DNA of 57,923 bases, the filler included, from Acidimicrobiia bacterium (GTDB lineage Bacteria; Actinomycetota; Acidimicrobiia; Spongiisociales; UBA11373), in NCBI GenBank assembly GCA_040878325.1. It is 3 parts of 3 records of this genome, joined end to end, with 100 filler letters (N's around TTAATTAATTAA, not from the genome) between each part and the next. Parts side by side here need not be neighbours in the genome. Positions count along the whole stretch, not along the records: positions 21,784 to 51,189 come from JBBDMM010000006.1; 2 more parts are not named here. One strand, written 5' to 3'. Positions 21,027 to 40,851 of the stretch are shown here, piece by piece. The notes beneath the pieces were generated by a model, which searched no databases, was not told where the DNA came from, and saw nothing but the letters and a program-made list of their open reading frames with translations. The position numbers were made by a program, and so were the translations under genes. Each line of letters begins with the position of its first letter. The stretch's first letter is position 1.

Positions 21027-21027
21027 T

Positions 21028-21483: not shown

Positions 21484-21543
21484 GTGGTGCGACCTCCGGT
21501 AGTGAACCTGGGGTCTATCCGATCCGCCGCGGGACGAAACCGG

Positions 21544-21683: not shown

Positions 21684-21783
21684 NNNNNNNNNNNNNNNNN
21701 NNNNNNNNNNNNNNNNNNNNNNNNNNNTTAATTAATTAANNNNNNNNNNNNNNNNNNNNNNNNNNNNNNNNNNNNNNNNNNNN
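21684..21783. other. Artificial contig join (N-run with TTAATTAATTAA linker)
   Basis: 100-nt gap with an all-frame-stop linker at 21728-21739. Confidence 0.97.
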
Positions 21784-22395
21784 ATCAGCCAGGCGGTCGC
21801 CCTTACCGGCACCGGTGACGCCGCCGCCTTCCGCCGCCGGCACGGCCTGAGCGGCCCGATCGTCCTCTTCGTGGGCCGCAAGATCGAATCGAAGGGATAC
21901 CAGGTAATGCTGGCGGCTGCCAGCCGCCTGGCCGAGACGCGCCCGGACGTGACGGTCTGCCTCCTGGGTTCGCGGGCCGGCGAGGGGCGCGGCGCGAGAT
22001 CCGGCAACGTGCTCGACCTCGACGACGTTACCGAGTCGGAGAAGAACGACGCATTCGCAGCGGCGGCGCTCTTCTGCCTCCCGAGCGTTGCCGATGTATA
22101 CCCTTTAACCGTGGTGGAGGCCCGACTCAGCGGCGTTCCCATCGTCGTCGGGCCCTTCCCCGGCGCCGAGGAGGTGGTGCGCCACCAGGTCGACGGCCTC
22201 ATCGTGCCGGCCAACCACGAGGCCGTTGCCGCCGCCGTTGACTCGTTGCTCGCCGATCCAGCGGCTGCCCGCGCCATGGCGGCGGCGGGACTCGCCCGGG
22301 CCAGGGAGGAGCACGCTCCCGAGCGGGTCGGTCGCGAGGTGCTGGCGGCCTACCAGGAGCTAGGCGGCCGGGCGCGCGAGTCAGCCGAGCCATGA
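21784..22395 (+). CDS. GT4-family glycosyltransferase, 5'-truncated by the gap
   Basis: VLFVGRK..KG, FCLPSVADVYPLTVVEARLSGVPIV, EVVRHQVDGL. Confidence 0.82.
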   Translation: MSQAVALTGTGDAAAFRRRHGLSGPIVLFVGRKIESKGYQVMLAAASRLAETRPDVTVCLLGSRAGEGRGARSGNVLDLDDVTESEKNDAFAAAALFCLPSVADVYPLTVVEARLSGVPIVVGPFPGAEEVVRHQVDGLIVPANHEAVAAAVDSLLADPAAARAMAAAGLARAREEHAPERVGREVLAAYQELGGRARESAEP

Positions 22396-23114
22396 GGGCC
22401 ATCATGCTTGCCGGCGGCCGCGCCACCCGGCTCGAATCGCTCTCTCCGACTGTCCCGAAGGCATTGACGCCGATTATCGGGCACCTACTTCTCGACATCC
22501 TGCTCTCCCAGCTGTGTGAGGCCGGATATGACCACGTCACCCTCTGCGTGGGCCATCTCGAGGAAGTGGTGCGTGCCCACGTCGGGGACGGGTCGAGGGC
22601 GGGCGTGGCCGTCGACTACGTAAACGACCACGGGAGGCTCGGCACGGCGGGTCCGCTCCAGCTGGTCGATGCCTGGGAGGAGCCCGCTCTGGTGCTTAAC
22701 GCCGATCTCCTCACCGACCTAGCATTCGGAGAAATGGCAGCCAGGCACGCGGCAAGCGGGGCCGCGATTACCCTGGCCGTGCGCGAGTACGTCACGCACC
22801 TTGACGTTGGCGTCGTCCAATGCGACGGCGACGGGGGGGTCGTCGCAATCGTGGAGAAGCCCGAGTTGCGCCAGCTCCTCACTTTGGGCATTTACATGAT
22901 CGACCCCGAGGTACGCTCCCACCTGCGCCCCGCCCAGCGAACGGACATGCCGGAGCTTGTCAATAGGGTGATCGAGTCTGGTGGCCACGTCCGGACCTTC
23001 GTCCATAGCGGCCGCTGGCATGACATCGGCACGCCCGCCGGCCTCGGCGCCGCGGAGGACACGCTGGGCGCTTGCCCGGCGGCGTTCGGCGTCACGGAGC
23101 GGACCGGGCCATGA
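22392..23114 (+). CDS. Sugar-phosphate nucleotidyltransferase
   Basis: MLAGGRATRL..PKAL, LGTAGPL, LNADL, EKP, WHDIG. Confidence 0.9.
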   Translation: MRAIMLAGGRATRLESLSPTVPKALTPIIGHLLLDILLSQLCEAGYDHVTLCVGHLEEVVRAHVGDGSRAGVAVDYVNDHGRLGTAGPLQLVDAWEEPALVLNADLLTDLAFGEMAARHAASGAAITLAVREYVTHLDVGVVQCDGDGGVVAIVEKPELRQLLTLGIYMIDPEVRSHLRPAQRTDMPELVNRVIESGGHVRTFVHSGRWHDIGTPAGLGAAEDTLGACPAAFGVTERTGP

Positions 23115-24880
23115 GCGACCTAGGCAGCGCAGCGCCCCCCCTGCTGGGTTTCAATTACCACCCGTCGTCTGGCGGTTGCCGCTATTGGACCCGGTTTCGC
23201 GCGGACGAGATCCGAGCCGACTTCGAGGCCATGGGCGCGGAGGGGTGGAACGTCGTTCGGTTCTTCGTCTTCTGGGCCGACTTCGAGCCGGAGGTGGGCC
23301 GCTACAACGAGGAGGCATTCGCCCATCTCGGCCAGATGGCCAGCATGGCGGCATCGGCCGGCCTACGGTGCATCCCTTCCATCCTCACGCTCTGGATGAA
23401 CGGCCAATTGCTCGACCTCCCGTGGCGCGGAGGCCGGGACTTGATCGCCGACCCAGAAGTGCGGACCCGTGCCCGGGAGCTCGCCCGTCGCGTAGCGGCG
23501 ACGCTCGGACCCGTCGGCAACGTAGCCTACTACGACCTCGGTGACGAGCTCCCTAACGTTCTGCCGGCACGGCGCGCTGAGCCGGACGCCGTCCGCGCCT
23601 GGTACGCGGAGATGGCCGACGCGATACGCTCGGCCGATCCAGGAGCTCTTGTCATCCAGGCGAACGAGGCGGCGGTGCTCGACGCGGCGCCGGCCTTCGG
23701 CCCGCCCACGCAGCAGGGCGTGCTCGACGCGGTGGCGCTGCACGGGTTCCCCCTCTGGTCGCGGCTTGGCATCACAGGCGCCGACGTCTACGCCGCCAGC
23801 GTCTACCCAGCATTCCTGGCCGCCGTCGCCTCTGCGTTCGGCCCCGCCCTCGTCGACGAGTTCGGCACATACGGAATGATGGCCGACGCGGCCGCCCGCC
23901 ATGTCGGCGCGGCGGCGGCGAGCGTTCTGGCAAGGGGCGTTCAGGGGCTGGTCTCTTGGTGTTGGAAGGACATCACGTCCGATGAGTGGCCTTACATCCG
24001 ACGGCCGGGGGAACGCGACGCCGGTTTCCGAACCGCTGACGGCGTTGCCAAGCCGGCATACGCAGCCCTGCGGCACGCTATCCAGTCAGCTGCTGCGCCG
24101 AGCTTCCACGCCGCCTCTCCGCAGGTCGGGATCGCCCTCGGGGCCGATGGCCGGTTGGCGAGCGCTCCCGCGTCGCTCTTCGGCTGCTATCTCGCTCTCC
24201 TCGCCTCGCATCACCGGCCGGCCTTTTTCACCGGCCTGGCGCACCTCGACCCTGAGCGATTCCCCTTCGTCGCGTGGCCCGGAGTTCGGTCGTTGCATCT
24301 GGATGAGTTGGAGGCTCTAGAGGCATATGCCGCGGCTGGCGGCGTGGCGCTTGTCTCTTCCCGCGCTCCCGCGCCCGGCACGGGGGGCGAGGGCCTTTTC
24401 GGGCTCGACGTGGACGGCTTCGGTACCGATCCAGATGCCCGGCCCATCATCGAGCTTCCGGGTGGAACGGTGCACCTCGGCCCCGTTCCCGAGGACGCCC
24501 TGCCCTATCCGATTGTTCGGGTCGACACCGCCGAGGTGCTTGGCCGGTTTGAGGCAGGTGATCCCGCGGTCACGGTGAAACGCCACGGCGACGGCTGCCT
24601 CTACTTCGTGAACGCGCCGTGCGAGGCGACGGCACCGGTGGGCGCCATCGGGGCGCCAGCGCCCGCCGAGCTGTACCGGCAGCTGCTGGCGTACGCAGGT
24701 TTCGACTCCGGGATTCGGGCGCCTGCTGGGGTGGAGGTGATCGTCGGGTGCGACGGCTCAGCCGTCGCCATCAACCACTTTCCGAAGCCGGTGGCCGGCG
24801 AGCTGAGCTTCTTGAGCACCTCCCTTCACGTATCCTTGGAGGCGAAGGAGGTCGCCCGGGTCGGAGGTGCTGTACCGTGA
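23111..24880 (+). CDS. Clan GH-A glycoside hydrolase (GH5/GH42-like) with a C-terminal trimerisation-like domain
   Basis: GFNY, NVVRFFVFWADFEP, DLGDEL (putative acid/base), LVDEFG (putative nucleophile); ATG 23111 overlaps the upstream stop. Confidence 0.75.
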   Translation: MSDLGSAAPPLLGFNYHPSSGGCRYWTRFRADEIRADFEAMGAEGWNVVRFFVFWADFEPEVGRYNEEAFAHLGQMASMAASAGLRCIPSILTLWMNGQLLDLPWRGGRDLIADPEVRTRARELARRVAATLGPVGNVAYYDLGDELPNVLPARRAEPDAVRAWYAEMADAIRSADPGALVIQANEAAVLDAAPAFGPPTQQGVLDAVALHGFPLWSRLGITGADVYAASVYPAFLAAVASAFGPALVDEFGTYGMMADAAARHVGAAAASVLARGVQGLVSWCWKDITSDEWPYIRRPGERDAGFRTADGVAKPAYAALRHAIQSAAAPSFHAASPQVGIALGADGRLASAPASLFGCYLALLASHHRPAFFTGLAHLDPERFPFVAWPGVRSLHLDELEALEAYAAAGGVALVSSRAPAPGTGGEGLFGLDVDGFGTDPDARPIIELPGGTVHLGPVPEDALPYPIVRVDTAEVLGRFEAGDPAVTVKRHGDGCLYFVNAPCEATAPVGAIGAPAPAELYRQLLAYAGFDSGIRAPAGVEVIVGCDGSAVAINHFPKPVAGELSFLSTSLHVSLEAKEVARVGGAVP

Positions 24881-25569
24881 CGGCAACGCAGCGCTCGCGG
24901 GTGGCCGAGGTGTGCAGGATGCGCGCTCTGGAGGCCGCTGGGTCCTCCGTCAGAGTGTGGTATCTGCCCGGAGCAGCGCAGCCCGCCTCCCTCCAGAAGG
25001 GTGCCGACCTTCGCCATGCCGCGATCGCAGCGGTCCTGGCGTCCGCTCTGGACCCTAACTCGGACGACACGGTGATCGACCATAGGTGCGCGTCGTGCGG
25101 AGGCTCCGACCACGGCCAACCCACCCTCCGAGGGCGCGGGGAGCTGGCGGTAAGCATCGCACGGGGAGGCGGCGACTTGGTCGTCGCCCTGGCCGAATCA
25201 CCCGTGGGCATCGACATGGAGCCGCCGAACTCAGCGGATGCCGTCCTCGAGGTGGCACCGCGGATCATGACCGATGTGGAGTGGCGGTCGCTCGAGGTTC
25301 TTCCCGCGGCGGACAGGGCACGCCGGGCGCTGGTGCTGTGGACGGCCAAGGAAGCGGCGCTTAAGGCGGCAGGCACCGGGCTGCCGGGAGGGCTGGCCAA
25401 CGTCGAGTGCGAAGTGGTCGAAGGACGGCTGGTGGCAGTTCGGTTGCTCGGGCCGCTGCGCCATCTCCAGCGAGAGCAGTGGCGGGCCCGCACTACCACG
25501 GGCTGCCGCGGGGTCGTGACCACGGTTGTGCTCGGCCAGGGGCCGCCACGCCGGGGAGATTGGCGATGA
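24877..25569 (+). CDS. Sfp-type 4'-phosphopantetheinyl transferase
   Basis: CASCGGSDHGQP, PVGIDME, WTAKEAALKAAGTGL; GTGA overlap with the upstream gene. Confidence 0.9.
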   Translation: MTATQRSRVAEVCRMRALEAAGSSVRVWYLPGAAQPASLQKGADLRHAAIAAVLASALDPNSDDTVIDHRCASCGGSDHGQPTLRGRGELAVSIARGGGDLVVALAESPVGIDMEPPNSADAVLEVAPRIMTDVEWRSLEVLPAADRARRALVLWTAKEAALKAAGTGLPGGLANVECEVVEGRLVAVRLLGPLRHLQREQWRARTTTGCRGVVTTVVLGQGPPRRGDWR

Positions 25570-26600
25570 GGGCGGTCCGGCTAATGGCGCCCGGCCACGT
25601 CGTTGTCGACCGCGATGCTCCGGAACCGGAGCTGCGCGACGCCGGCGACTGCATCATCGAGGTCGATGTCGCCGGCATATGTGGCACGGATCTTCACCCG
25701 TACCGCGGGCACATCGCCAACTTCACGCCCCGCACGATCATGGGTCACGAATTCGTCGGCCGGATCGTCGCCGCCGGGAGCGGCGTGGAGCGGCGGCGGC
25801 TCGGTGAGCTGGTCGTGGTGTCCGACCTGGTCGCTTGTGGCGCCTGCGCGTACTGTGCGGCCGACCAGCATTACCAGTGCCGCGAGGTGCAACTGTTCGG
25901 CTACGGCGACGTGGTCGGCGCCTACCTCCCGGGTGGTCAGGCGGAGCGGGTGCGGGTGCCCCGCGCCGACCTTGCCACGTTCCCCGTGCCCGAAGGCCTC
26001 TCGCCCCGGTCAGCCGTGTTCGCCGCCGATGTCCTCACGACCGCGTTCGCCGCGGTCGAATTTGCCGCGGGCGAGCGGAGCGGCAGCCTGGCGGTCGTTG
26101 GGTGCGGCCCCGTTGGCCTAGCCGTCGTGCTGTGTGGCCTGTGGAAGGGGTTCGAACGAATCGTGGCGATCGACACTGACGCGTCCCGTCGGGTTGCGGC
26201 ATCCCGTCTTGGCGCCACGGGGGTGGCCGCCGATGCCGACGAGGCCGCCGAGCTGCTGCCGACCCGCGGCGCCCACGCCGTCGTGGAGGCCGTGGGCGCG
26301 AGCCAGGCCCTGGCCACGGCTGTGGAGATCGCCGGGCCTCGAGCCTGGATCTCCAGCGTGGGCGCGCCGCACGGAACCGGGGCTTCGCTGCCCGCTGAGA
26401 CCGCCTTCGGACGGGAGCTGACCCTCCGGTTTATCGTCGGCAATCCCCTCGCCCTTGCTCCCCGCGTCCTCAGCCTGATGGCCAGCGGTGAGCTCGACCC
26501 CGCTCCGATCGTGAGCCACGTCTTGGCCCTCGACGACGCCCCTGCCGGCTACGCCGCGTTCGACCGACGGGGCGCTGTCAAGGTCTTGCTCGAGCCATGA
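25566..26600 (+). CDS. Zn-dependent alcohol dehydrogenase (MDR family)
   Basis: GICGTDLH, GHEFVG, CGACAYC..C structural Zn site, GGQAE, GCGPVG. Confidence 0.92.
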   Translation: MRAVRLMAPGHVVVDRDAPEPELRDAGDCIIEVDVAGICGTDLHPYRGHIANFTPRTIMGHEFVGRIVAAGSGVERRRLGELVVVSDLVACGACAYCAADQHYQCREVQLFGYGDVVGAYLPGGQAERVRVPRADLATFPVPEGLSPRSAVFAADVLTTAFAAVEFAAGERSGSLAVVGCGPVGLAVVLCGLWKGFERIVAIDTDASRRVAASRLGATGVAADADEAAELLPTRGAHAVVEAVGASQALATAVEIAGPRAWISSVGAPHGTGASLPAETAFGRELTLRFIVGNPLALAPRVLSLMASGELDPAPIVSHVLALDDAPAGYAAFDRRGAVKVLLEP

Positions 26601-29600
26601 CCGCCCTCGCCTCGGCAGAAGTCGCCTCGCTGATGGCCGAAGTGCTCAAGCTGAAAGACTTCGCCGTCGAGGATGACTTCCTCACCTCCGGCGGCGACTC
26701 ATTGCGAGTCGTCCAGCTCGCAGTACGGATTGCGGAGCGGCTCGGCGACCCGATCGACGCGCGGGGCTTCGCCGCCCTTGTCACCGGCATCTTCGACCGA
26801 CGCACTGCAGCGAGCATCGCACCGCTCACCGGCGAACTGACCGCCGCGCCGGTGGCCGCCGCGCCCCAGCCGTCCGAGCCGGCAACCCTCTCGGCCCAAC
26901 AGCACCAGATTTGGATCCACCGGCGCGCCAACCCGGACTCCGCCGCATACAACGTAGTCAACGTTTTCGACTTGGTTGGTCCGGTGGACTCCGGATCCCT
27001 TGAGACTGCCCTTCGGTCCGTTGCGGGGCGCCACCCGGCGCTGTTGACGGCGCTGGACACGCATGCCGGCCTGCCGGCGACGTCGCGTCACGACCCGGAG
27101 GGTATCTCCGTGGTCGTAGCGCCGCGGGCATCGGGCGAGGCTGCCGCGTTCGCCACAGTCGACACGATCGCCGCGACCCCGTTCTCCTTCGGGGAGCTGC
27201 CGATACGCTGCCACCTCGTGCCCTACGGATCGGGTGAGGCCCACCTGCTGATGTTTGTCATCGACCATGCGAGTTGCGACGGGTGGTCGATGCCGATCTT
27301 CTACCGCGAGCTCAGCGTCCTTTATGGCGGCGCCCGGCTTCCCGATCCTCCGCCGACCCCTGCCGCCGTCAGGCATGCCGGCGACGCCGCCGAATGGGCA
27401 GACCGGCTGCGACCCATCCCCCCGCCTCTGGATCTCGACCCGACTGTCAGCCGAGGGGTTCGCGACTTCGCGGGCGCCGTCCACTACACGATGCTGGCAC
27501 CGGATCTGGTCGACCAGCTGCGAGCGTGGCTAGCCGCGCGGTCGGCCACCCTCTTCATGGGGCTCATGACATGCTTCCAGCTCGCGCTCAGTGACCTCAC
27601 CGGTCGGTCCCGGTTCCTGCTCGGCGTGCCCGTAGCCAATCGCGGTGGCCAGCACTCCGAACGCGCCGTCGCTTACCTCGCCAACACGATGGTGCTGCAG
27701 GCCGTTGTCGAGGACAGCTCCAATTACGCGGGACTGCTGGGCACGGTCCGCGCCAACGTTATCGACGGCCTGGTCCACCAGTCCGCGCCCTTCATGGACC
27801 TAGTCGAGGAGCTACGCCCGCCGCGCGACCCGACCCGAACCCCGCTGATCGACGTATTGTTTGTCATGCAGAACTCGGCTCCCGTGGCCTTGGAACTTGC
27901 CGGATGCTCGGTTACGCAGCGGCGCTTCGACAACGGCACGGCCAAGTTCGACCTGACCCTTGAGGCTCATGAGACCGGGGGCGGCGTCGGTCTCCGCTGG
28001 GAGCGCGCCGCGGCGCTGTCACCAGCGATCGTAGATAGCGTCATCGCTCGCTTCGAGCGGCACGCCACGGCGATGGCGGCCGACCTACCTCGGCTGCGCC
28101 CGCCAAAACAACCGCCGCGCCCCGGGCCCCCGCAAGACCGTTCCATCGGAGCCGCCTTCGCCCGGGTCGCTAGCGAAAGGGCGGATCAGGCGGCGCTCGT
28201 GACCGACAACGGGACCACGACGTTCGCCGAGTTGCACCTTCAAGCGGCGGCCGTGGCGGAGAAGCTCCTGCAACAAGGGCTCGGACCCGGCAGCCGGATC
28301 GGGGTTCTCCACGAGCGAACCCCTGAATGGGTCGCCGCTGCGATCGGCACCTGGTTGGCCGGCGGCATCTACGTTCCGCTCGATCCTGCGCTGCCCGACG
28401 GCGCGCTGAAGCGGATGATTTCGGCCGGAGGGGTCGCCCATGTGGTCGCATCAGCGGCCGCCGCCGAGCGGGCGGCGGGACTCGGCCCACCCGTGAGCCT
28501 GACAGGCGAGATCCAGGCGCTTCCCCCCGGATCCAAGCTGATGCCACCGCTGGAAGCCGGTCCGGCCGGTCCCGCATATGTCGTGTTCACCTCCGGCTCC
28601 ACAGGGGCTGCGCGAGGCGTGATCGGTCACCATGCCGGCCTGCTCAACCGCATTGCCTGGATGCACAACGGATGGCCGGTCGCAGAAGGCGAGCTTGGAT
28701 GTCTGAGAACTGGGATCGGTTTCATTGATTCGCTCACCGAGCTGCTCGGCCCCATGCTCGCCGGCCGGCCCAGCCTGGTCGTCCCCGATTCGGCGGGTCG
28801 GGCCGCTACGGAGCTGCTTGAGCTGCTTCGCCGCCACAAAGTGTCCCGGCTCGTGATCACCCCAAGCTATCTGCGACTTCTGCTAGTCGAGTTCCCCGAG
28901 CGGTTTGCCGCCCTGACCGGGCTAAGCATCTGCGTGGTCAGCGGGGAGCGGCTGACCGCCGACGTGTGCATCCGCTTCTACCGGCTCCAGCCGGGCGCGG
29001 TGCTGCTCAACCTGTATGGGACCTCCGAAGTTGCCGGCGACGTGACTTGGTATGACACCCGCGCCCTCGCACCGCTTGCCGATCCCGTCCCAATCGGGAG
29101 GCCGTTACCCGGCTGCACGGTGAGCATTGAAGACGAGCAGGGCCAGCCCGTTCCGGGCGGGAGTGAAGGTGAGCTAGTCGTCAGCGGCGTCCAGGTGGCA
29201 CTCGGCTACACAGGTGCCCCGTCGCCGGGCCGGGCGAGCTTCGCTGAGCGCGCCGGTGTGCGTCGGTTCCGAACAGGCGATCTCGGGCGACAGCGTCCCG
29301 ACGGGGCCATCGAGTACGTAGGGCGGATCGACCGAGTCGTCAAGGTGCGTGGCATCGCGGTCGACCCCGACGGTGTCGAGGCGATGCTGCAGGAGCTGCC
29401 CGGCGTAACCGGAGCGGCGGTCATCCCCTGCCATGGATCCGACGGCTCTTGGCTGCACGCCTGGATCGAGCCGGAGGCGGACGTCGACGCGATCCGAGCT
29501 GGCCTGCTTCGCGATGCCCCAGCACACATGGTCCCAGCTGTGATCTCAGCGGTGCCGGTTCTGCCGCGGACTCCCTCGGGCAAGCTCGACTACGTAAGGC

Positions 29601-29938
29601 TGGGCGGTCCGGCGCACCAGGCGCCGGCGGCACCGGCCGCCAAGCTGGGGCCTCTTGAGGAAGCGGCCCGGGACGTGATCTGTGAGGTGCTGGGAGTCGC
29701 GACCGTAGGGATAACCGACAACTTCTTCAGCTCCGGCGGCGACTCGTTGCGGGCCAACAGGGTGCTCGCCCGCATAAGCGACCGCTTCAAGCTCGGCGAT
29801 CTTGACTTTGCGAGCTTCTATCGAGAGCCCACGGTCACGGGCCTGGCAACACTTGTCGCTGCCGAACTCATGCGGGGGACCGATCCCGAAGTGTCGGCAG
29901 TAGTGCGCGCTCGGTTGCGGGCGAGAGGGTCTCCGTGA
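26597..29938 (+). CDS. Non-ribosomal peptide synthetase, T-C-A-T
   Basis: Two GGDSL PCP motifs; C domain DHASCDG; A domain FTSGSTG, NLYGTSE, RTGDLG, PSGKLD. Confidence 0.93.
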   Translation: MTALASAEVASLMAEVLKLKDFAVEDDFLTSGGDSLRVVQLAVRIAERLGDPIDARGFAALVTGIFDRRTAASIAPLTGELTAAPVAAAPQPSEPATLSAQQHQIWIHRRANPDSAAYNVVNVFDLVGPVDSGSLETALRSVAGRHPALLTALDTHAGLPATSRHDPEGISVVVAPRASGEAAAFATVDTIAATPFSFGELPIRCHLVPYGSGEAHLLMFVIDHASCDGWSMPIFYRELSVLYGGARLPDPPPTPAAVRHAGDAAEWADRLRPIPPPLDLDPTVSRGVRDFAGAVHYTMLAPDLVDQLRAWLAARSATLFMGLMTCFQLALSDLTGRSRFLLGVPVANRGGQHSERAVAYLANTMVLQAVVEDSSNYAGLLGTVRANVIDGLVHQSAPFMDLVEELRPPRDPTRTPLIDVLFVMQNSAPVALELAGCSVTQRRFDNGTAKFDLTLEAHETGGGVGLRWERAAALSPAIVDSVIARFERHATAMAADLPRLRPPKQPPRPGPPQDRSIGAAFARVASERADQAALVTDNGTTTFAELHLQAAAVAEKLLQQGLGPGSRIGVLHERTPEWVAAAIGTWLAGGIYVPLDPALPDGALKRMISAGGVAHVVASAAAAERAAGLGPPVSLTGEIQALPPGSKLMPPLEAGPAGPAYVVFTSGSTGAARGVIGHHAGLLNRIAWMHNGWPVAEGELGCLRTGIGFIDSLTELLGPMLAGRPSLVVPDSAGRAATELLELLRRHKVSRLVITPSYLRLLLVEFPERFAALTGLSICVVSGERLTADVCIRFYRLQPGAVLLNLYGTSEVAGDVTWYDTRALAPLADPVPIGRPLPGCTVSIEDEQGQPVPGGSEGELVVSGVQVALGYTGAPSPGRASFAERAGVRRFRTGDLGRQRPDGAIEYVGRIDRVVKVRGIAVDPDGVEAMLQELPGVTGAAVIPCHGSDGSWLHAWIEPEADVDAIRAGLLRDAPAHMVPAVISAVPVLPRTPSGKLDYVRLGGPAHQAPAAPAAKLGPLEEAARDVICEVLGVATVGITDNFFSSGGDSLRANRVLARISDRFKLGDLDFASFYREPTVTGLATLVAAELMRGTDPEVSAVVRARLRARGSP

Positions 29939-32900
29939 TGAGACCCGATGCGGCGGGCGCCGCGGCCTCCGACGACATGACCGTCGATGCGGCCGCCCTG
30001 CTCGAGCTAGAGCCTGACGAGCAGCGTTATCTCCTCGACATGCTGCAACGCGCCTACCAACCCACACACGGGGTACCTTCCGGGGCCGTCCCGCCCGGAG
30101 TTCTGTCAGATGAGCAACGCCAAATCTGGCTCGTCGAGCGGACCGTCGACGCTGGCAGCGCCTACAACATCAGCGTCGCAGTTCGCCTTAAAGGCAGCTT
30201 TGACGAGGACCGGCTTGCTCGCGCCGTGGCCAGCACAATCGACCACCACCCGGCGTTGACTACGGTATTTGCGGCGGCCACCGACGGGGAGCCGGTCGCC
30301 CGAGCGGGCACACGCGCCGAGCGCACCATCGTGGCTGTTGAGATCTCGGCATCGGACGAACAAGCGGCCCTGGGCGAGGCCACCGCGTTCGTCGCCCAGT
30401 CATTCGACCTAGCGGTCGGTCCCCTGATACGCGCCCGCGTCTGGCGCATATCGACCGACCACGGGCTGCTCGTCATCGCCGCCCACCACATTGTCTGCGA
30501 CGGGGCCTCCTTTGAGGTGCTCCTGCACGATGTAGCGCGGCGCTACGAGGAACGGACCGAGTCCGCCTATCTCGACGGCAACTCCGGTCCGCGATCGGCC
30601 GACACCGCCGCCGTCGAGCGCATAGCGGCCGAACACGCGACCATCCCTCCGTTTCTTGACCTCCCGGGCGATGCCCAGCCCGGCGCCGATCGCACCTTCG
30701 AGGGCGGCGCTGTCCACCGCCGGTTCCCCGGCGACCTCGAACGCCGCCTCAGGCAGGTGGCAGAGGAGCTCGCCGTCACCCTGAGTTCCCTGGCCCTTGC
30801 CGGATTCGCGGCTCTCTTGTATCGGTACACCGGCCGGGAGCAGTTCGCCGTCGGTGTGCCGTTTTCAACTCGCCGAACTGCGGCCGACGCAGGGCGAGTT
30901 GGCCTTTACGTGAACTCGCTTCCAGTGCCGTTCGACTGCACTGTGGATATGTCATTCGCCGTGCTCGCGCGAACGGCCCACCGCAAGCTCGCAGAGCGCA
31001 TCGCGCTAGCTCCTACCGTCCCTTTCGCAGCCCTGGTCGAGCGAGTTAACCCTCCCCGCCACCCCACCAGGAACCCGCTATTCCAGGTCGAGTTTGCCTT
31101 TCAGTCGCGGCTGGGGCTGCCGACCACCATGGGCGGTGCTTCCCTCGACCCGGTGCCGATTCCGAGCGGGGCATCGAAGTTCGACCTGTCGCTCGACGTG
31201 ATTGAGACCTCCGACGGGCTCACGGCCTCCTTCGAATTCGCCACAAGCCTGTTCTCCGAGGACCGCATCGACCGGATGGTTGATCATTACCTGGGCCTGC
31301 TTCACCACTTCGCCGACGCGCCGGGCCAGACGCTGGGCACACCCCCCCTGCTCTCCGCTTCGGAGGCTGAATGGGCTGAGAAGGCAGGAGGGCTCACCGC
31401 GGCTGCCGCATACGATCGCCACGAGCCCCTCCTGGCGCGGCTTCGGCGCCATGTCCGAAGGACGCCGGACAGCGTCGCTGTGCTCGACGACCGCGAGTCA
31501 ATAACCTTCGGCGATCTCATATGCCGCGCCGAGGCGGCGGCCAGCGCCCTCGCCCGGGCAGGCGTCAGACAAGGGCAACGAGTGGCGCTCTTCCTCCCCC
31601 GCTCGGCACAGGCCGTCGTCTTCGTGCTCGGAGCCTGGCTGCGCGGTGCTGCCTTCGTGCCCATTGACGCCGACACTCCGCCGCGTCGGGTCGAACATAT
31701 CCTCGACCTCGCGCGGCCTGCGGCGATTGTGGTCGACGACGATACGGCGACCAGGATCGCGGCGCGCTCGGAGCCGCTCGTTCCGGTCAGCGGCTTGATG
31801 CTCGACTCGTACGGCAGCCCACCCTTTGGCAGCGTCGAATCCGGTGATGCTGCCTACTTGATATTCACTTCCGGCACGACCGGCGCGCCGAAAGGGGTCG
31901 AGGTGACTCACCGCGCCCTTGAGACCATGACTACCGCCTGGGCCTCAGAGTACGGGCTCGAAGCTCAACCAGCTCGTTACCTTCAGCTCGCCCGCATATC
32001 CTTCGACATCTTCGTTGGAGACCTTTGCAGGTCGTTCCTGTGCGGTGGGACGCTGGTGGTCTGCCCCGACGAGACCATCACCGACCCCGAACGGCTCCTC
32101 GCGCTGATCGAGTCAGCCCGAGTGGATACCGTTGAGTTCGTCCCCGCCCTACTCCGGTTCGTCCTGGACTACCTGGCTGCCAAGGGGCGGCGGCTACCTG
32201 CCCTGCAGCGCCTCGTGGTCGGCTCCGATATGTGGTCCGTGGACGACGCCCGGAGGATGCTGGAGGCTGTGCCGCCCGGCACACGCTGCTTTTGCTCGTA
32301 CGGGACCACAGAGGCTGCTATCGATAGCACCTACTCCGAACTCGACGGCGACGCCCTTCCCCGCCACGGCCCAGTGCCGATTGGGCGCCCCTTCCCAGGT
32401 GTCGGCATCCGCGTCCTAGACGTTGCCGGGCACGACTGCCCGATCGGCATACCCGGCGAGTTGGTCATCGCAGGGCCAACGGTCAGCGACGGCTACCTTT
32501 TTGGGGCCGGGGCCAGGGATCGCCGATTCCACACGAGCGAGGTCGTGCCCGGGTTCTCTGAGGTGCGGACCGGGGACCGCGCCTACTGGCTCAAGAGCGG
32601 CGAGCTCGTCTGCCTTGGTCGTGATGACGACCTCATAAAGATTCAAGGCGCCCGCGTCGATCCGGTTGAGGTAGAGCGGGTCCTCCGGGCGGTGCGCTCA
32701 GTCGCCGATGCCGCGGCCGTTGCAATCGGGCTACCCGGAGACCAGGAGCTTGTCGCGGTGCTCGTGGCGGCGGACGGCGCCATGGACCCTGTCGCCGAGA
32801 CCAAACGGGAGCTGTCCGAGACACTACCGAGGAGTGCTGTCCCCACCCGCTGGTTAGTGACCGAGAGGCTTCCCACAACCCCTAACGGGAAACTCGACCG

Positions 32901-35661
32901 GCCCGCCGTCCGTGCGCTCGCCGAGGCCGGGAACGAACCCGTCGGCACCGTAGCACCACGCACCGCACTAGAGCGCTCACTCCACGAGATTTGGAGCAGC
33001 GTGCTCCCAGGACGCTACTTCGGAGTGACCGAGAATTTCTTCGTCATCGGCGGGCGGTCGCTGCTGGCCGCACGGTGCGCGTGGCGTATCCGCGATACGC
33101 TGGGCCTTGACGCCTCGACGGCGGACATCTTCCACGCCCAAACGATCGAAGCCCTTGCCGAACGCCTCGTGCGGCCCGGCCGCGCCAAGGAGGTCGCGCT
33201 AGCTCGCCCGGTTCTGTCGCTCCCGGTCGAGATCGGCTTCTCGGGCTCGACGGTGCCCGTGAGGGAGCGGCGACGGGTGCTACTGACCGGCGCCACCGGC
33301 CTCGTTGGCTCGGCGATCGCCCGATCCCTGGGCGACGCCGGCATCGCGGTGACACACCTCGTTCGTGCCGACACGACGGAGGAAGCCGCCCGTCAACTCC
33401 GGGCCAGCGAGGCGGGCCGGCCGGGTCGGCTCGACATCGTGATCGGAGATCTGAGCCGACCACTTCTCGGCCTTGACTCGAACCGCTTCGGCGTACTCGC
33501 GGCGTCAGTCGACGGCGTGGTGAACGCCGCGGCGTGGGTCAGCTTCGTGCTCCCCTACGAGGAGCTGGCCCCGACTAACGTCGGGGGCGTAGTTGAGCTT
33601 CTCCGGCTCTGTGGCTCGGACCAGGGGCGGATCCTGCCTTTGGTCCAAGTGTCGACGGCGTCCGCGGCCCGAGCGGGCGACGCTGCACCGGCGGGGGGCT
33701 ACAACGCCACGAAGTGGGACGCCGACTTCCTCATCAAGCAAGCCGCAGCCTTGGGCCTGCCGGCCACGATCATCCAGCCGGGCTTCGTGGTAGACCCCGG
33801 CCGGCCGCGCACCACGGATCTGCTCTGGGCCTTCCTCGCAACTTGCTGCCAGACTGGTATGGCCCCGCGGATGAACGGGCGTCTCAACCTCGTGCCAGCC
33901 GGGCGTCTCGGCGATATGGCAGCGGCCGCAATTGGCGGAACTCTAGGTTCCGGCGTTTGGGTGGCGGCACACCCGCACCCCGCACGGTGGAGCGACGTCT
34001 ACCGCGCGCTCGCACGCGCCGGCTGGCCGCTCACCATCGTGGAGCCGGACACCTGGCGAGGCTCCGTGGAGGAGCCGGGCCTGCCCATCGAGCCGTTTCT
34101 CACCCTCCTTGATAAGGTTCCGATCGACGAGCTGCTCGAGGACGACGATCTGCACACACACCCGCTAGCCGCGCCGGCGGATGGCGTCTGGCAACCCGTC
34201 GTGGATTTGGTCGTTGATTCGGTGGCCGCCCTCCAGCCGATGGCGAGGGCTCCTGGGCAGCCGACGACGGCGACTAGGCCGCACACCGTGGTGGACGCGG
34301 TTGGTGCCCTGCTGGTCGACTTCGAGGAACGGAACCGGCCGGTCAACTCAATCGTGGTCCACGACCCTGTTCGGGTCATCGCCGAGGCCGCCGCGCTTGA
34401 TCGCATCCCGCTGGAGGATCGAGCGAGCATGCCTCTATTTGGTGTACCGATCACGGTGAAGGAGTCGATCGACGTGGTTGGCTACCCGAGCACGGCTGGC
34501 GACCCGCATGTCTGCGGCGATGCGACCGCGACCGATGCACCCTCCGTGCTCCGACTCAAGGCAGCAGGCGCCGTCATAATCGGCAAGACGAACGTTGCAT
34601 ATCTTCTGGAGGACTGGCAGGCGCGCAACCCACGGTACGGAGTGACTAGCAATCCATATGACCACCGACACACCGCCGGGGGGAGTTCCGGCGGCGCGGC
34701 GGCGGTGGCCCTGAGGTTGAGCGCGGGCGACCTCGGGAGCGACCTCATCGGGTCGCTGCGCGTGCCTGGCGCATTCTGCGGCGTCTTCGCTCACCGGGCG
34801 ACGGATGGTGCTTTGTCGCGGGCCGGCGAGGGGCGGATTGTCCCACGCGACCTTCCCGGTAGCGTCCTCGGGAGCCAGGGTTTCGCTGCGGCGTCTACAT
34901 CGATACTTACCACGCTCCTAGAGGTCGCCGGCGCTGGGTCGATCCACAAGCCTGACCCCGTCAGTTGGCTCAGTTCACGCGACCGCCTCTCCGGCCTACG
35001 CTTGGCCGTGCTCCCGGAGCTTGCCTGGCTCCCACTAAGCGCAGCAACGCGCGCCGCGGTGGAGCTTGCTGCGGCCCGTGCGGCCGACCTAGGCGCCCGA
35101 GTGGTCGAGGCCGCGCCGCCCCGTTGGGGCGAGGAACACATTGCAGTCACCTGCTCGCTGCTCGGCGCCCTCACCCTCGCTCGTCGTCCAGCCGCGGAGC
35201 GGAACGCCATGGTTGAGGCGCTAGCGGCACGCCGTGCCCCGTTCGACGCCGATTGGAGGCGGGGCATTACCGCCTCCGTCATGGACTACTTCGTCTGGCT
35301 GTCGCTGCGGGAGATCATCCGCGAGGGCTACGCCGAGTTTTTCGCCGAGCACGACCTGCTCCTCGCGCCGATCACATTGGGCACTGCTTTCGGTCACATG
35401 GCCGACACATCGCTGTGGCCCACGGGAGAGGCGTCCCAGCCCACCCTCTCAATCAACGGCACAGCAGTCCCCTACGGATGGCAGCTCATATACCCTTCGA
35501 TCGCCTCTCTTCCTGGGCTGCCCGCGACAGCTTTCCCTGTCATGATGGACAGCGGCCTTCCGGTCGGACTCCAGGTGATAGGCCCCGAGGGTGGCGACTT
35601 CGCGTCCATTGAGCTGGCAGGCCGTCTGTCCGACGCCGGTTCGCCTGCGGCGGCGGGCTGA
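29935..35661 (+). CDS. Non-ribosomal peptide synthetase, C-A-T-R fused to an amidase-signature domain
   Basis: HHIVCDG; FTSGTTGAPKG, YGTTE, RTGD, NGKLD; GGRSL; R domain TGATGLVG and YNATK; amidase GVPITVKE, GGSSGG, GSDLIGSLRVP. Confidence 0.92.
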   Translation: MMRPDAAGAAASDDMTVDAAALLELEPDEQRYLLDMLQRAYQPTHGVPSGAVPPGVLSDEQRQIWLVERTVDAGSAYNISVAVRLKGSFDEDRLARAVASTIDHHPALTTVFAAATDGEPVARAGTRAERTIVAVEISASDEQAALGEATAFVAQSFDLAVGPLIRARVWRISTDHGLLVIAAHHIVCDGASFEVLLHDVARRYEERTESAYLDGNSGPRSADTAAVERIAAEHATIPPFLDLPGDAQPGADRTFEGGAVHRRFPGDLERRLRQVAEELAVTLSSLALAGFAALLYRYTGREQFAVGVPFSTRRTAADAGRVGLYVNSLPVPFDCTVDMSFAVLARTAHRKLAERIALAPTVPFAALVERVNPPRHPTRNPLFQVEFAFQSRLGLPTTMGGASLDPVPIPSGASKFDLSLDVIETSDGLTASFEFATSLFSEDRIDRMVDHYLGLLHHFADAPGQTLGTPPLLSASEAEWAEKAGGLTAAAAYDRHEPLLARLRRHVRRTPDSVAVLDDRESITFGDLICRAEAAASALARAGVRQGQRVALFLPRSAQAVVFVLGAWLRGAAFVPIDADTPPRRVEHILDLARPAAIVVDDDTATRIAARSEPLVPVSGLMLDSYGSPPFGSVESGDAAYLIFTSGTTGAPKGVEVTHRALETMTTAWASEYGLEAQPARYLQLARISFDIFVGDLCRSFLCGGTLVVCPDETITDPERLLALIESARVDTVEFVPALLRFVLDYLAAKGRRLPALQRLVVGSDMWSVDDARRMLEAVPPGTRCFCSYGTTEAAIDSTYSELDGDALPRHGPVPIGRPFPGVGIRVLDVAGHDCPIGIPGELVIAGPTVSDGYLFGAGARDRRFHTSEVVPGFSEVRTGDRAYWLKSGELVCLGRDDDLIKIQGARVDPVEVERVLRAVRSVADAAAVAIGLPGDQELVAVLVAADGAMDPVAETKRELSETLPRSAVPTRWLVTERLPTTPNGKLDRPAVRALAEAGNEPVGTVAPRTALERSLHEIWSSVLPGRYFGVTENFFVIGGRSLLAARCAWRIRDTLGLDASTADIFHAQTIEALAERLVRPGRAKEVALARPVLSLPVEIGFSGSTVPVRERRRVLLTGATGLVGSAIARSLGDAGIAVTHLVRADTTEEAARQLRASEAGRPGRLDIVIGDLSRPLLGLDSNRFGVLAASVDGVVNAAAWVSFVLPYEELAPTNVGGVVELLRLCGSDQGRILPLVQVSTASAARAGDAAPAGGYNATKWDADFLIKQAAALGLPATIIQPGFVVDPGRPRTTDLLWAFLATCCQTGMAPRMNGRLNLVPAGRLGDMAAAAIGGTLGSGVWVAAHPHPARWSDVYRALARAGWPLTIVEPDTWRGSVEEPGLPIEPFLTLLDKVPIDELLEDDDLHTHPLAAPADGVWQPVVDLVVDSVAALQPMARAPGQPTTATRPHTVVDAVGALLVDFEERNRPVNSIVVHDPVRVIAEAAALDRIPLEDRASMPLFGVPITVKESIDVVGYPSTAGDPHVCGDATATDAPSVLRLKAAGAVIIGKTNVAYLLEDWQARNPRYGVTSNPYDHRHTAGGSSGGAAAVALRLSAGDLGSDLIGSLRVPGAFCGVFAHRATDGALSRAGEGRIVPRDLPGSVLGSQGFAAASTSILTTLLEVAGAGSIHKPDPVSWLSSRDRLSGLRLAVLPELAWLPLSAATRAAVELAAARAADLGARVVEAAPPRWGEEHIAVTCSLLGALTLARRPAAERNAMVEALAARRAPFDADWRRGITASVMDYFVWLSLREIIREGYAEFFAEHDLLLAPITLGTAFGHMADTSLWPTGEASQPTLSINGTAVPYGWQLIYPSIASLPGLPATAFPVMMDSGLPVGLQVIGPEGGDFASIELAGRLSDAGSPAAAG

Positions 35662-35668
35662 GGCTGCG

Positions 35669-38425
35669 ATGACCCACGGCGCCCCCGAACCCGGCACGTT
35701 GCGTCCCCCGATCGCGCAGGCTGGGTGGATTGTGGTGCGCGGCGCGGGCCAGCACAACCTCAAGTCGATCGACGTTACGATCCCGCGCGACGGCGTCACG
35801 GTGATTACAGGCGTGTCAGGGTGCGGAAAATCGTCGCTGGCCTTCGACACGATCTACGCCGAGGGGCATCGGCAGTATCTCGAAAGCTTGTCGCCCTACG
35901 CGCGCAGCTCCCTCTCCAAGCTCCCCAAGCCGGTGATCGAGTCGATCACCGGCCTCACGCCGACCATCGCTATCGAGCAACGCAAGCTCAGCCGAAACCC
36001 CCGCTCGAGTGTCGGCACCATCACGGAGGTATCAAATTACATGAGGCTGCTCTTCGCCAGGCTCGGTCGCCATGCATGCGCCGGATGCGGAGATGAGGTC
36101 TTCCCGCGAATCGCAGCGGAGCACGTCGATTGGCTCCGCAGCCATGGCGATCAGCATCCGCTGGTGGTCGCGCCGCTTGACAGCGACGAAGGCAGCCTGA
36201 CGCTCGAACCGGGATGGGCAAGCCGGACGACGTCGAAGGTAGAGCGGCTGCTCACCGGCGCGCTGCATGCCGGGCGCGTGATGGTGGTGCGCGACAGCAC
36301 CGGCGTCGTGAGGTACGTCGCCCCCGGCTGGATCTGTGCCACGTGTGGGACGGAATCCGTGGCTACATCGTCGGACTACTTCACCTCCAACTCGCCGCGG
36401 GGGATGTGCGAGGCGTGCGATGGACTCGGCTACACGGTCGCGGTCGACCAAAGGCTTTTGGTGCTTGACGACCGGGAGTCGGTCCGCTCCGGGGCGCTAG
36501 CGTTCTTCGGCGACAGGCGCCGTAGCAAGAAGACCTGGTGGCCGCTCCGGCGCATGCCAAGGCTGCTAGAACTTGCTGGCGCCAACCTCGACACCCCATG
36601 GCGCGAGATCCCCTCGAGCGTCAGGCGGTTGATCCTTACCGGCACCGCGGGGGCTGACCTGCCACCGCCTGTCGCGACCGACGTTACTCGCGAACCATTC
36701 ACGGGCCTGACGTCGGAGATCGAGCGGCTTTATCGAGATGCCAACTCGGCGAAGCGTAGGGACGCATATGCATCCCTAATGGCAACTGCGACCTGCCCGG
36801 CGTGCGGCGGGGCGGGCCATGCCCGGGCCGCCCTCACGGTCCGCCTCGGCGGTCTCAACATCGCCCAGGTCAATTCACTCACCATTGATGAGTTGCAGAA
36901 TTGGTTCACGGACGTGGAAACCGAGCTGGCTGGGTCGTTTCTCCATCAAATCGGCGCCGAACTGCTCGAGGAAGTCCGACTCCGGACGGAGTTCATGATC
37001 GACGTTGGTCTCGACTACCTCTCGCTCGATCGCAAGGCACCTTCGCTCTCGGTCGGCGAAGGTCAACGGCTAAGGCTTACTCGCCAGCTCGGGTGCGGCC
37101 TCGTAGGGATCACCTACATCCTCGACGAACCGTCGATCGGCCTCCATGCCCGTGACATGGGAAAGCTCATCGGGGTCCTGCGTCGGCTCCACACGGCAGG
37201 GAACACCGTTCTCGTGGTTGAGCACGACCGAGAGACGATCGAGGCGGCCGACTTCATCCTCGATCTCGGACCGGGCGCCGGTGTCCTCGGCGGCCGGCTG
37301 GTGGCGTCAGGCACCCGGGACCAGGTTGCCGCGACAGCCGACTCGCCCACCGGACAGTTCTTGCGCGGAACGCTCTCGGTCGAATCGGGGCGTTCGGGGA
37401 AGAGGAGGCCGCCGGATGCCTGGCTCACCGTCGAGGGTGCCAACCTTCATAACCTCGCCGACATCACCGTCCCGATCCCCATTGGGCGTCTCACCTGCGT
37501 CACCGGGGTCAGCGGCAGCGGCAAGACCTCGTTGACAAGTGGGTCGATCGGGCCGGCCGTCTCCGCTGCGATCCGCGACGGACAAGTGGGACCTGGGCCC
37601 TACCGAGGTATCACGGGCTGGGAGTCAATGACGCGAGTCGCGACCGTTACCCAACAGTCGATCGGCCGATCCGCCCGTTCGACCCCGGCGACATACATCG
37701 GAATATTCGACGAAGTACGAAAGACTTTCGCGAAGCTGCCCGAGGCCCGCGCCCGGCGCTACTCGACCGCTCAGTTCAGCTTCAACACCGACCGGGGAGG
37801 CCGATGCGGCCGCTGTCTCGGCACAGGGTCGATCTGGGTCCAGATGCACTTTCTCGCCGACGTCGCGGTCGACTGCCCGACTTGCGAAGGGCGGCGGTTC
37901 GCCCCCGAAACGCTCGAAATCCGTTACGGCGGCCTGAACATCGCCGATGTCCTCGACCTGGAGGTGGGCCAGGCCCTAGACCACTTTGCCGAACATACGC
38001 GAATCGTGGGGCCTTTGCAGGTCCTCGCCGACGTCGGCCTCGGCTACCTGCGCCTCGGTCAGGAAACGTCCACCCTCAGTGGCGGCGAGGCCCAGCGGCT
38101 GAAACTCGCCCGAGAGCTGACCCAGCCTGGCGAAGGGCGCACACTGTACCTGATCGACGAGCCGACCACAGGTCTCCACGCCTTCGACATCCAACTCCTC
38201 GTGGACGTCCTCGAGAGGCTCGTCGATCGGGGCGACACGGTCGTCGCCGTGGAACACGACATCGACTTCATCGCCACGGCGGACTGGATCGTTGACCTCG
38301 GACCCGGTGGCGGGCGCGCTGGCGGACAGCTCGTCGCGTCCGGGCCCCCGGCGGAGCTCGCCAATCATCCAGCCAGTGCGCTGGCGCCCTACCTGGCGAG
38401 GCGCCTTGCTGTCGCAGAGCGCTGA
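35669..38425 (+). CDS. UvrA-like protein (DrrC/UvrA2-type putative self-resistance)
   Basis: GAGQHNLK, GVSGCGKSS, LDEPSIGLH, second GVSGSGKTS and LSGGEAQRLKL, Zn-finger CxxC pairs; no uvrB or uvrC nearby; start set at ATG 35669. Confidence 0.9.
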   Translation: MTHGAPEPGTLRPPIAQAGWIVVRGAGQHNLKSIDVTIPRDGVTVITGVSGCGKSSLAFDTIYAEGHRQYLESLSPYARSSLSKLPKPVIESITGLTPTIAIEQRKLSRNPRSSVGTITEVSNYMRLLFARLGRHACAGCGDEVFPRIAAEHVDWLRSHGDQHPLVVAPLDSDEGSLTLEPGWASRTTSKVERLLTGALHAGRVMVVRDSTGVVRYVAPGWICATCGTESVATSSDYFTSNSPRGMCEACDGLGYTVAVDQRLLVLDDRESVRSGALAFFGDRRRSKKTWWPLRRMPRLLELAGANLDTPWREIPSSVRRLILTGTAGADLPPPVATDVTREPFTGLTSEIERLYRDANSAKRRDAYASLMATATCPACGGAGHARAALTVRLGGLNIAQVNSLTIDELQNWFTDVETELAGSFLHQIGAELLEEVRLRTEFMIDVGLDYLSLDRKAPSLSVGEGQRLRLTRQLGCGLVGITYILDEPSIGLHARDMGKLIGVLRRLHTAGNTVLVVEHDRETIEAADFILDLGPGAGVLGGRLVASGTRDQVAATADSPTGQFLRGTLSVESGRSGKRRPPDAWLTVEGANLHNLADITVPIPIGRLTCVTGVSGSGKTSLTSGSIGPAVSAAIRDGQVGPGPYRGITGWESMTRVATVTQQSIGRSARSTPATYIGIFDEVRKTFAKLPEARARRYSTAQFSFNTDRGGRCGRCLGTGSIWVQMHFLADVAVDCPTCEGRRFAPETLEIRYGGLNIADVLDLEVGQALDHFAEHTRIVGPLQVLADVGLGYLRLGQETSTLSGGEAQRLKLARELTQPGEGRTLYLIDEPTTGLHAFDIQLLVDVLERLVDRGDTVVAVEHDIDFIATADWIVDLGPGGGRAGGQLVASGPPAELANHPASALAPYLARRLAVAER

Positions 38426-38533
38426 CGTTCGCCCTTCCGTGCCCCGGCAGCGACCAAGGCCTCAACGCCAGCGAGTCCTTCAAGCAGTCGACGTCACCGA
38501 ACCTTCGCGGCGCATAGAGAACCCCGCCGCCCC

Positions 38534-40839: not shown

Positions 40840-40851
40840 GAGCCGGAGTCC

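Follow-up and report, generated by a model that had tools for sequence, protein, structure and literature searches.

In a 57,923-nt stretch of DNA from an Acidimicrobiia bacterium (GCA_040878325.1), hereafter the window, we analysed a nonribosomal peptide synthetase (NRPS) cluster whose last gene encodes a UvrA-like protein, here called UvrA2. The cluster forms a real and intact biosynthetic operon that was acquired horizontally. Its general type, in which a small, reductively releasing NRPS is paired with a UvrA-type gene, is already known; three of its features are uncommon, in that its UvrA belongs to a new clade whose UvrB-binding segment is shortened, its end module of ornithine-type adenylation, reductase and amidase domains recurs elsewhere, and its sugar cassette is portable. 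From the sequence we judge it about evenly balanced that the 13 genes of the operon make a glycosylated acyl-β-alanyl-ornithine peptide that is reductively released, with UvrA2 shielding the producer from a predicted DNA-directed action of this product.

The genome (G000; 18 contigs, 2.21 Mb, 98.9% complete) contributes three contig pieces to the window: positions 1-21683 are G000:C5, 21784-51189 are G000:C6:99012-128417, and 51290-57923 are the start of C7. The TTAATTAATTAA/N blocks at 21684-21783 and 51190-51289 are the joints of these pieces, and no feature should be read through them. The initial annotation took the 5' part of the cluster to be lost in the gap and suggested recovering the upstream contig; in fact nothing is missing, as C6 runs on 5' of window position 21784 with no N near 99012, continuous into the rest of a glycosyltransferase gene and five further operon genes. 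The apparent gap is an artefact of window building, and the 5' part of the cluster is therefore readable. The operon comprises 13 co-directional genes over ~23 kb within a 30-kb island, and 10 of its 12 junctions overlap by 1-8 nt. The eight operon genes that reach into the window, all on the + strand, had been described as mostly overlapping and given families by eye, and Pfam and NCBIfam bear this out; six of the seven junctions among them are ATGA or GTGA overlaps, and the remaining one, between NRPS2 and UvrA2, is a gap of 7 nt. Upstream on C6, also on the + strand (locus L009), lie a stand-alone AMP-ligase, a DegT-family aminotransferase, a 2-oxoglutarate-Fe dioxygenase (PF10014, HilB/amino-acid hydroxylase type), a nucleoside-diphosphate (NDP)-sugar dehydrogenase, a short-chain dehydrogenase/reductase (SDR) and the full glycosyltransferase gene. 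Because the first ~170 codons of the ligase open reading frame (ORF) show no coding signal, the operon probably starts near L009:12830; a 730-bp divergent region separates this start from an opposite-strand aldehyde dehydrogenase gene. The 730-bp region 5' of the ligase and the sequence downstream of UvrA2 yielded neither a sigma-70-like promoter nor an intrinsic terminator.

Horizontal acquisition, as had been proposed, is shown by absence from relatives and by a break in synteny. A search of 40 relatives, of which 3 share the genus of G000, 21 its family and 16 its order, returned ordinary amidases only and no match to the reductase part of NRPS2 (0 of 39 if the unpublished genome G039 is set aside). 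NRPS matches occur in 36 of 400 genomes of the class, with a best identity of 33%, and in none of 12 same-family genomes; G000 itself holds only two NRPS genes, both in this operon. Compared at the DNA level with the congener G002 and the closed genome G008, C6 is syntenic up to a peptidoglycan-binding gene (L009:4342-5676) on the left and again from 38536 on the right, just inside the dihydropyrimidinase gene at 38534, so that genes ~4.2 kb apart in G002 and G008 lie 30 kb apart here. The right island edge is a convergent intergenic spacer (38426..38533) that precedes this conserved gene (38534-40015, minus strand). When the same reads were put through another assembler, the resulting contigs spanned both edges with 0 differences and a depth of 46-49, like the flanks, which makes a chimeric join unlikely; of the independently assembled contigs, one covers 33000-35863 with 0 differences and another bridges 37491-39013. 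Among the public runs searched, the locus is present in one DNA run only, a sediment metagenome that is its possible source. Codon usage, by contrast, does not carry the argument. The cluster had been thought less biased at third codon positions, but the difference is not significant: median G+C content at third positions (GC3) is 0.786 in the 13 island ORFs of at least 300 residues and 0.809 in the 1035 remaining ORFs of that size (Mann-Whitney p = 0.068), the NRPS genes stand at the 33rd-39th GC3 percentile, and codon-usage distance is no different (p = 0.80). There is no tRNA gene inside or beside the island.

Both NRPS proteins have condensation (C), adenylation (A) and thiolation (T) domains in modular order, and the operon's phosphopantetheinyl transferase has an ACPS domain (Pfam), as in modular (type I) NRPSs. 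NRPS1 (26597..29938, +) is a T-C-A-T protein with two PP-binding stretches, a Condensation and an AMP-binding match in Pfam (T ~26609-26821, C 26882-28003, A 28157-29584, T 29669-29857). NRPS2 (29935..35661, +) is a C-A-T-R-amidase protein by Pfam and NCBIfam, R being the reductase domain (C 30103-31368, A 31441-32892, T 32980-33168, R 33277-34071, amidase-signature domain 34300-35598). The motifs xHxxxDG (DHASCDG, HHIVCDG), GGDSL/GGRSL and A3 are all readable. The R domain scores 109.8 bits against PF07993 (cut-off 20.1) and has TGATGLVG and YNATK; against TIGR01746 it reaches 154.7 bits, under the cut-off of 213.35. The amidase domain scores 205 bits against PF01425 with its triad motifs intact (K in ITVKES, GGSSGG, S in GSLRVP), judged against the FAAH motif pattern.

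We located the signature positions of the A domains by eye relative to the core motifs and carried them over by means of MAFFT alignments. The signature of NRPS2, DIGEVGSIDK, is close to DVGDAGSVDK in two Streptomyces C-A-T-R modules, to DVGEIGSVDK in protein P0163 (C-A-T-R-amidase) and to the ornithine signature DVGEIGSIDK quoted in PMC3992020. That of NRPS1, IDTVVSLGDK, resembles what we take to be a β-alanine signature. The earlier proposal of β-alanine and ornithine-like units agrees with these signatures, which read as β-alanine-like in NRPS1 and ornithine-like in NRPS2. A starter loaded in trans had also been proposed, in line with the stand-alone AMP-ligase upstream and the T domain that opens NRPS1. 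The ligase has Ser at the α-amine position and no Asp, by which the acid activated would not be an α-amino acid; its signature is SYGFVSLLIK, compared with SFGLLSVVIK in a ligase adjoining a related sugar cassette in metagenome locus L067.

NRPS2 is most closely related to P0002, which has the domain order C-A-T-R, 53% identity over 1425 residues and the same signature. A 4,239,454-bp contig carries P0310, which belongs to the 90%-identity cluster of P0002, together with P0162 (an amidase with a gene of its own, at 59% identity to the fused domain), P0136 (the closest match to the operon's glycoside-hydrolase-like protein, 63%) and P0016 (UvrA2, 59%, sister in the tree), a linkage at contig scale only that does not imply adjacency. 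The fusion of reductase and amidase looked unique in a word-indexed search, and this was overturned by an exhaustive one (best 150 of 40,687 matches), in which P0163 (2037 aa) is a C-A-T-R-amidase and P0165 (1242 aa, N-terminus cut) an A-T-R-amidase. An ornithine-type reductive end module with an amidase-signature enzyme is thus present in at least four gene sets, fused in three and with a separate amidase on the same contig in one. The cluster had been called unmatched among characterised systems, and there was indeed no such match among the libraries searched. Its architecture, which the initial annotation did not recognise, is rare; it is not unique, given one orthologous gene set and a C-A(Orn)-T-R-amidase in another assembly. 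No description of an NRPS with fused reductase and amidase was found among the papers listed by one full-text literature search, and one may be in print. A profile scan of genome contigs with the NRPS2/P0002 alignment returned only distant NRPS genes (27-31% identity, 4 loci).

Two characterised proteins help to place this end module. MxcG of the myxochelin pathway (NF038078) is, like NRPS2, a C-A-T-R protein with a basic amino acid on a reductive end module, and it is the best named NCBIfam model covering NRPS2 from C to R, with 469.1 bits against an equivalog cut-off of 2300; unlike NRPS2 it has no amidase, and its catechol starter genes were not seen at the operon. The nearest solved relatives of the fused amidase are metagenomic urethanases (182 bits) and ClbL of the colibactin pathway (8es6; 167 bits over part of the domain). 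ClbL likewise is an amidase-signature protein serving an assembly line; rather than hydrolysing, it joins a thioester and an aminoketone through an amide. ClbL is, however, a separate protein, its best aligned stretch covers residues 19-187 of the 463-aa query, and the urethanases score higher.

UvrA2 (918 aa; 35669..38425, +) is a cluster-bound UvrA paralogue with a truncated UvrB-binding segment. It scores 936.3-936.7 bits against TIGR00630, above the cut-off of 729.8, and 949.7 bits against PRK00349, below the cut-off of 1147. It is not the housekeeping class I UvrA of this genome: a better uvrA (UvrA1; 1445 bits, PF17760 at 137 bits, 43.6% identical to UvrA2) lies on C12, PF17760 was not found in UvrA2 (Pfam, E <= 0.001), and there is no UvrA2 orthologue in the 40 relatives, where the best long matches are housekeeping UvrAs with 38-48% identity. 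Model positions 152-214 of TIGR00630 are unmatched in UvrA2, and its residues 18-157 and 177-330 align to chain residues 23-162 and 229-378 of solved class I UvrAs, by which ~47 residues of the UvrB-binding domain are missing. Both ABC ATPase sites (Walker A/B and signature motifs), the zinc-finger cysteines and the DNA-binding insertion domain are kept.

In a tree of 47 sequences the UvrA2 clade (22 proteins) is monophyletic with a support of 1.0, and its sister is a group of three short class-II-like proteins (0.968). The segment between the zinc-finger Cys pairs follows the same division: it is 87 aa long in UvrA2 and 86-106 aa across all 22 clade members, against 130-137 aa in the canonical UvrA rows (21 reliable ones) and 35-37 aa for the three class-II-like proteins; one canonical row, hk_L018 (127 aa), was dropped from the tree as probably read in the wrong frame. 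Among 5.8 billion clusters, the nearest proteins to UvrA2 have 52-54% identity over the N-terminal 420 residues and lengths of 901-964 aa, all lack PF17760, and they are named by their source as Streptomyces, Kitasatospora, Micromonospora and Microbacterium. No clade member occurs in a 400-genome sample of the phylum. UvrA-like proteins without the UvrB-binding domain protect producers of DNA-binding drugs (PMC10413001). Like these class II proteins (DrrC, Ecm16, MtrX and TmrX, as PMC10413001 presents them), UvrA2 is encoded inside a biosynthetic cluster, as the last operon gene, and keeps its ATPase sites. Those proteins have no functional-looking UvrB-binding domain, whereas UvrA2 retains 87 aa of a segment that Pfam does not recognise, and it belongs to a separate monophyletic clade.

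A member of the UvrA2 clade is present in 3 of 401 Streptomyces genomes, and in all three it lies within a large NRPS cluster. Common to the three clusters are the NDP-sugar dehydrogenase (42%), the SDR (44-47%), UvrA2 (57-59%) and a nucleotidyltransferase-family gene; two of them also have the glycosyltransferase (36-37%), the glycoside-hydrolase-like gene (38-39%) and the alcohol dehydrogenase (44%), and one has the DegT gene (40%). A terminal C-A-T-R module is present in these clusters, seen in G873 as A-T-R at the locus edge, while their other NRPS modules are not orthologous to ours (~30% identity). UvrA2 accompanies that subset of sugar cassettes which also has the ornithine-type reductive end module. 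The same Streptomyces loci (L045-L058; G859, G1167 and G873) also encode a FAAL-T-C-T protein, a protein with a LanB-N-terminal-like dehydratase domain, free-standing C domains, a fatty-acid desaturase, an asparagine synthase and a haem-oxygenase-like protein, and they look like uncharacterised glycosylated lipopeptide pathways.

The sugar cassette itself includes genes on C6 upstream of window position 21784, namely the DegT-family aminotransferase (nearest models the UDP-4-keto-sugar aminotransferases PseC, 270 bits, and ArnB, 230 bits), the NDP-sugar dehydrogenase (TIGR03026, 239.5 bits, cut-off 189.8) and the SDR epimerase/dehydratase, for which the keto-pentose synthase model is weak (53.9 bits). 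The family 4 glycosyltransferase (GT4) enters the window with its C-terminal 203 aa (21784..22395, +; Pfam Glycos_transf_1 76.9 bits); the full gene encodes 354 aa, starts at L009:18560 (G000:C6:98559), outside the window, and also matches Glyco_transf_4. There follow a sugar-1-phosphate nucleotidyltransferase (22392..23114, +; PF00483 106.6 bits), joined to GT4 by an ATGA overlap, and a glycoside hydrolase (GH)-like protein (23111..24880, +) with a clan GH-A TIM barrel and a GH42M-like domain. In the latter PF01301 is weak, Atlas clusters give GH5/GH42M at a structural TM of 0.92, and the NE and DEFG motifs, read by eye, fit the clan GH-A acid/base and nucleophile; no signal peptide was seen, and by the look of its N-terminus the protein is cytoplasmic. 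Its family is rare, with 26 other proteins found, and serves as a marker of the cassette. A Sfp/HetI-type 4'-phosphopantetheinyl transferase (PPTase; 24877..25569, +; PF01648 54.2 bits, HetI model 27.9 bits and below cut-off) stands between it and a Zn-dependent polyol-type alcohol dehydrogenase (ADH; 25566..26600, +; ADH_N and ADH_zinc_N). The nearest NCBIfam models of this ADH, all below cut-off, are inosose, threonine and galactitol-1-P dehydrogenases; it belongs to the conserved cassette, being 44-50% identical to cassette ADHs at other loci.

A metagenome scan with the GH-like family gave 10 loci, and in five of these (L061, L062, L063, L065 and L067, with GC of 41-72%) at least three cassette genes stand in one order, scored as dehydrogenase, SDR, GT4, nucleotidyltransferase, DegT, GH and ADH. 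L061 and L067 have matches to all seven, the GH-like gene of L067 being on the opposite strand; L062 has no DegT match and its ADH elsewhere, and L063 and L065 have no ADH match. The cassette is found across these loci without UvrA2 and is hence a portable module of its own. Its metagenome neighbours include AMP-ligases, an amidase (L062), an Amidohydro_2 protein (L067), aldehyde dehydrogenases (L064 and L066) and an NRPS with a thioesterase (L067). The L062 amidase was considered as a close relative of the fused domain and rejected, tblastn giving no match of at least 70 bits. UDP-4-amino-4-deoxy-L-arabinose is made by the Ugd/ArnA/ArnB route, to which the calicheamicin aminopentose route may be added as a second example of this kind. 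The cassette has the same enzyme set (nucleotidyltransferase, NDP-sugar 6-dehydrogenase, SDR and DegT-family 4-aminotransferase) and differs in that all equivalog models are below cut-off, the transferase is of the GT4 type, and a GH-like protein and a Zn-ADH are included. The initial annotation, which read the product as a plain peptide aldehyde, had overlooked this nucleotide-sugar cassette, by which a glycosylated product is implied instead.

Taken together, these parts suggest the following route. The ligase would activate a carboxylic acid that is not an α-amino acid, a sugar-derived uronic acid being a possible starter, and load it onto the N-terminal T domain of NRPS1. The C domains would then add a β-alanine-like unit in module 1 and ornithine in module 2, and the R domain would free the chain as an aldehyde, which may close onto the ornithine δ-amine to give a six-membered cyclic imine or carbinolamine, or be reduced further. 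Cyclic imines and carbinolamines are the electrophile type of pyrrolobenzodiazepines (PBDs) and saframycins. The cassette, with its nucleotidyltransferase, NDP-sugar 6-dehydrogenase, SDR, DegT-type 4-aminotransferase and GT4, would build and attach an amino or uronic sugar, and the amidase might strip an acyl cap or transfer an acyl group, as ClbL does. UvrA2 would use ATP to clear drug or lesions from DNA and would not recruit UvrB, as described for class II UvrA-like proteins in PMC10413001.

A close known parallel to such a route is found in PBD clusters (porothramycin, anthramycin), which like the operon combine a small NRPS with a UvrA-family gene and whose product alkylates DNA; PBDs are released by a terminal reductase, and their imine is the DNA-reactive group. 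The differences are considerable. PBDs are built from anthranilate and a proline derivative, whereas the operon has β-alanine-like and ornithine-like signatures; PBD clusters are without an N-terminal T domain served by a trans ligase, without an amidase and without the operon's sugar cassette; and their UvrA-family gene is of the short type, while UvrA2 has half of its UvrB segment kept. In the porothramycin cluster the UvrA-family gene por3 (743 aa) stands beside the NRPS genes por20 and por21 (PMC4194701), and the genes listed there for the anthranilate and branched-proline building blocks (kynurenine pathway, L-DOPA dioxygenase and others) are absent from the 13 operon genes and the rest of the island.

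DNA as the target of the product is a reasonable proposal, to which we give a confidence near one half, and it is the UvrA paralogue alone that points to DNA binding by the product. Several observations weigh against it or against other parts of the proposed route. The resistance role of the UvrA2 clade against DNA-binding drugs is a prediction; its UvrB-binding segment is about one third shorter, that is, shortened and not removed; and against solved structures UvrA2 scores 766 bits with repair UvrAs, 588 with Deinococcus UvrA2 and 435 with Ecm16. There is no UvrA2 match in any of the five ordered-cassette metagenome loci (four of them with 10-kb flanks), so the cassette need not imply a DNA-directed product. 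The β-alanine reading is tentative: the signature taken for β-alanine was not found in a literature search, and the overall closest PDB match of the NRPS1 A domain is a Gly-activating LgrA module. The association of UvrA2, amidase and reductive module on the 4,239,454-bp contig has the contig-scale limit given above, no exporter gene is present in the island, and no RNA run is listed as holding the locus among the public runs searched.

Part of this evidence would suit a glycosylated reduced peptide with another target, for instance a cationic membrane- or envelope-active compound or a myxochelin-type chelator, with UvrA2 as a travelling general repair or stress paralogue, which we regard as possible yet doubtful. 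It would explain why the cassette lacks UvrA2 in five of five metagenome loci and lies there beside lipid- and NRPS-type genes, why UvrA2 is nearer to repair UvrAs than to Ecm16, and why NRPS2 resembles the Lys-loading enzyme MxcG, although the MxcG score is far under its cut-off. It accounts less well for the position of UvrA2, which follows NRPS2 directly as the last operon gene, and for clade members inside related clusters in all three Streptomyces genomes and on the contig of the orthologous gene set; moreover, the genome already has a complete uvrA. An unlikely alternative is that chance brought together two unrelated functions, with the sugar genes serving a cell-surface or storage glycoconjugate and the NRPS a separate small peptide. 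Polysaccharide loci typically contain GT4, NDP-sugar dehydrogenase, SDR and DegT genes, EpsE, TuaC and WecC-like NCBIfam models are listed (all below cut-off), and some loci free of NRPS genes (L062, L063) have the cassette too. Against chance stand the 13 co-directional genes with nearly all junctions overlapping, the PPTase and ADH between the sugar genes and the NRPS, the presence of the cassette within NRPS clusters of three Streptomyces genomes and L067, and the ligase of similar signature that adjoins it in L067. A role of UvrA2 in defence, directed against phage or linked to restriction, in concert with the type II restriction-modification genes (restriction endonuclease-like and methyltransferase) at the left island end is highly improbable, as its PADLOC mad3 match (212 bits) is generic, UvrA1 scoring higher (319 bits), and these genes lie ~20 kb off on the other side of the operon.

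A bolder extension of the DNA-directed reading, which we hold to be a long shot, is that a third, so far unrecognised UvrA paralogue class, with half the UvrB-binding domain deleted, marks a family of actinobacterial pathways to amino-sugar peptides that end in reduced ornithine. Here an ornithine-specific C-A-T-R module and an amidase-signature enzyme would act as a new release device in two steps, the R domain giving an amino-aldehyde and the amidase, in the manner of ClbL, adding a second acyl chain to it, and the outcome would be a dimeric or capped bis-electrophile able to cross-link DNA.

The left island end (L009 5801-10463, G000:C6:85800-90462) holds a HATPase_c_3 protein with weak type II restriction endonuclease matches, a type II DNA methyltransferase and an overlapping APH-like ORF of low GC3. 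At the same site G002 has (L051 = G002:C7:17000-23000, 1324-5352) an A-T-thioesterase protein of 940 aa and a Lys/Orn N-monooxygenase-like flavoprotein, and the site seems to be a chromosomal hot spot for small secondary-metabolite islands. To the right, the conserved neighbours at 38534-42291 and 50155-51162 code for the dihydropyrimidinase (TIGR02033 576 bits, above cut-off), a class III aminotransferase and a CN-hydrolase. These belong to the core genome rather than to the island, are 88-89% identical in G002, and look like a reductive pyrimidine breakdown to β-alanine, beside the predicted β-alanine-like module. Between the class III aminotransferase and the CN-hydrolase, which are ~0.4-2.3 kb apart in G002 and G008, window positions 42300-50100 hold a nosZ-type cluster (nos_propeller/cupredoxin protein, NosD, ABC ATPase and ABC-2 permease). 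This is a second insertion at the locus; G005 and G008 have nos-like DNA at other places. Short stretches at ~43127-43232 and 49849-50029 match dozens of sites in G001, G003 and G005 with 75-100% identity and are, from these many matches, dispersed repeat elements. At the end of C5, heptamer arrays (of the type GACTCTT, complement AAGAGTC) at 20940-21030 and 21540-21683 flank a small gene.

If the proposed function holds, the UvrA clade with a shortened UvrB-binding segment would be a new resistance marker for the genome mining of DNA-directed natural products, for which current queries are short DrrC/Ecm16-type proteins (PMC10413001). The ornithine-reductase-amidase arrangement would stand as a recurring type of end module, and the seven-gene sugar cassette as a portable unit common to clusters in hosts of 41-72% GC. 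For the organism itself, it would mean that a streamlined, uncultured actinobacterium of 2.2 Mb acquired its sole NRPS pathway at a variable site of its chromosome.

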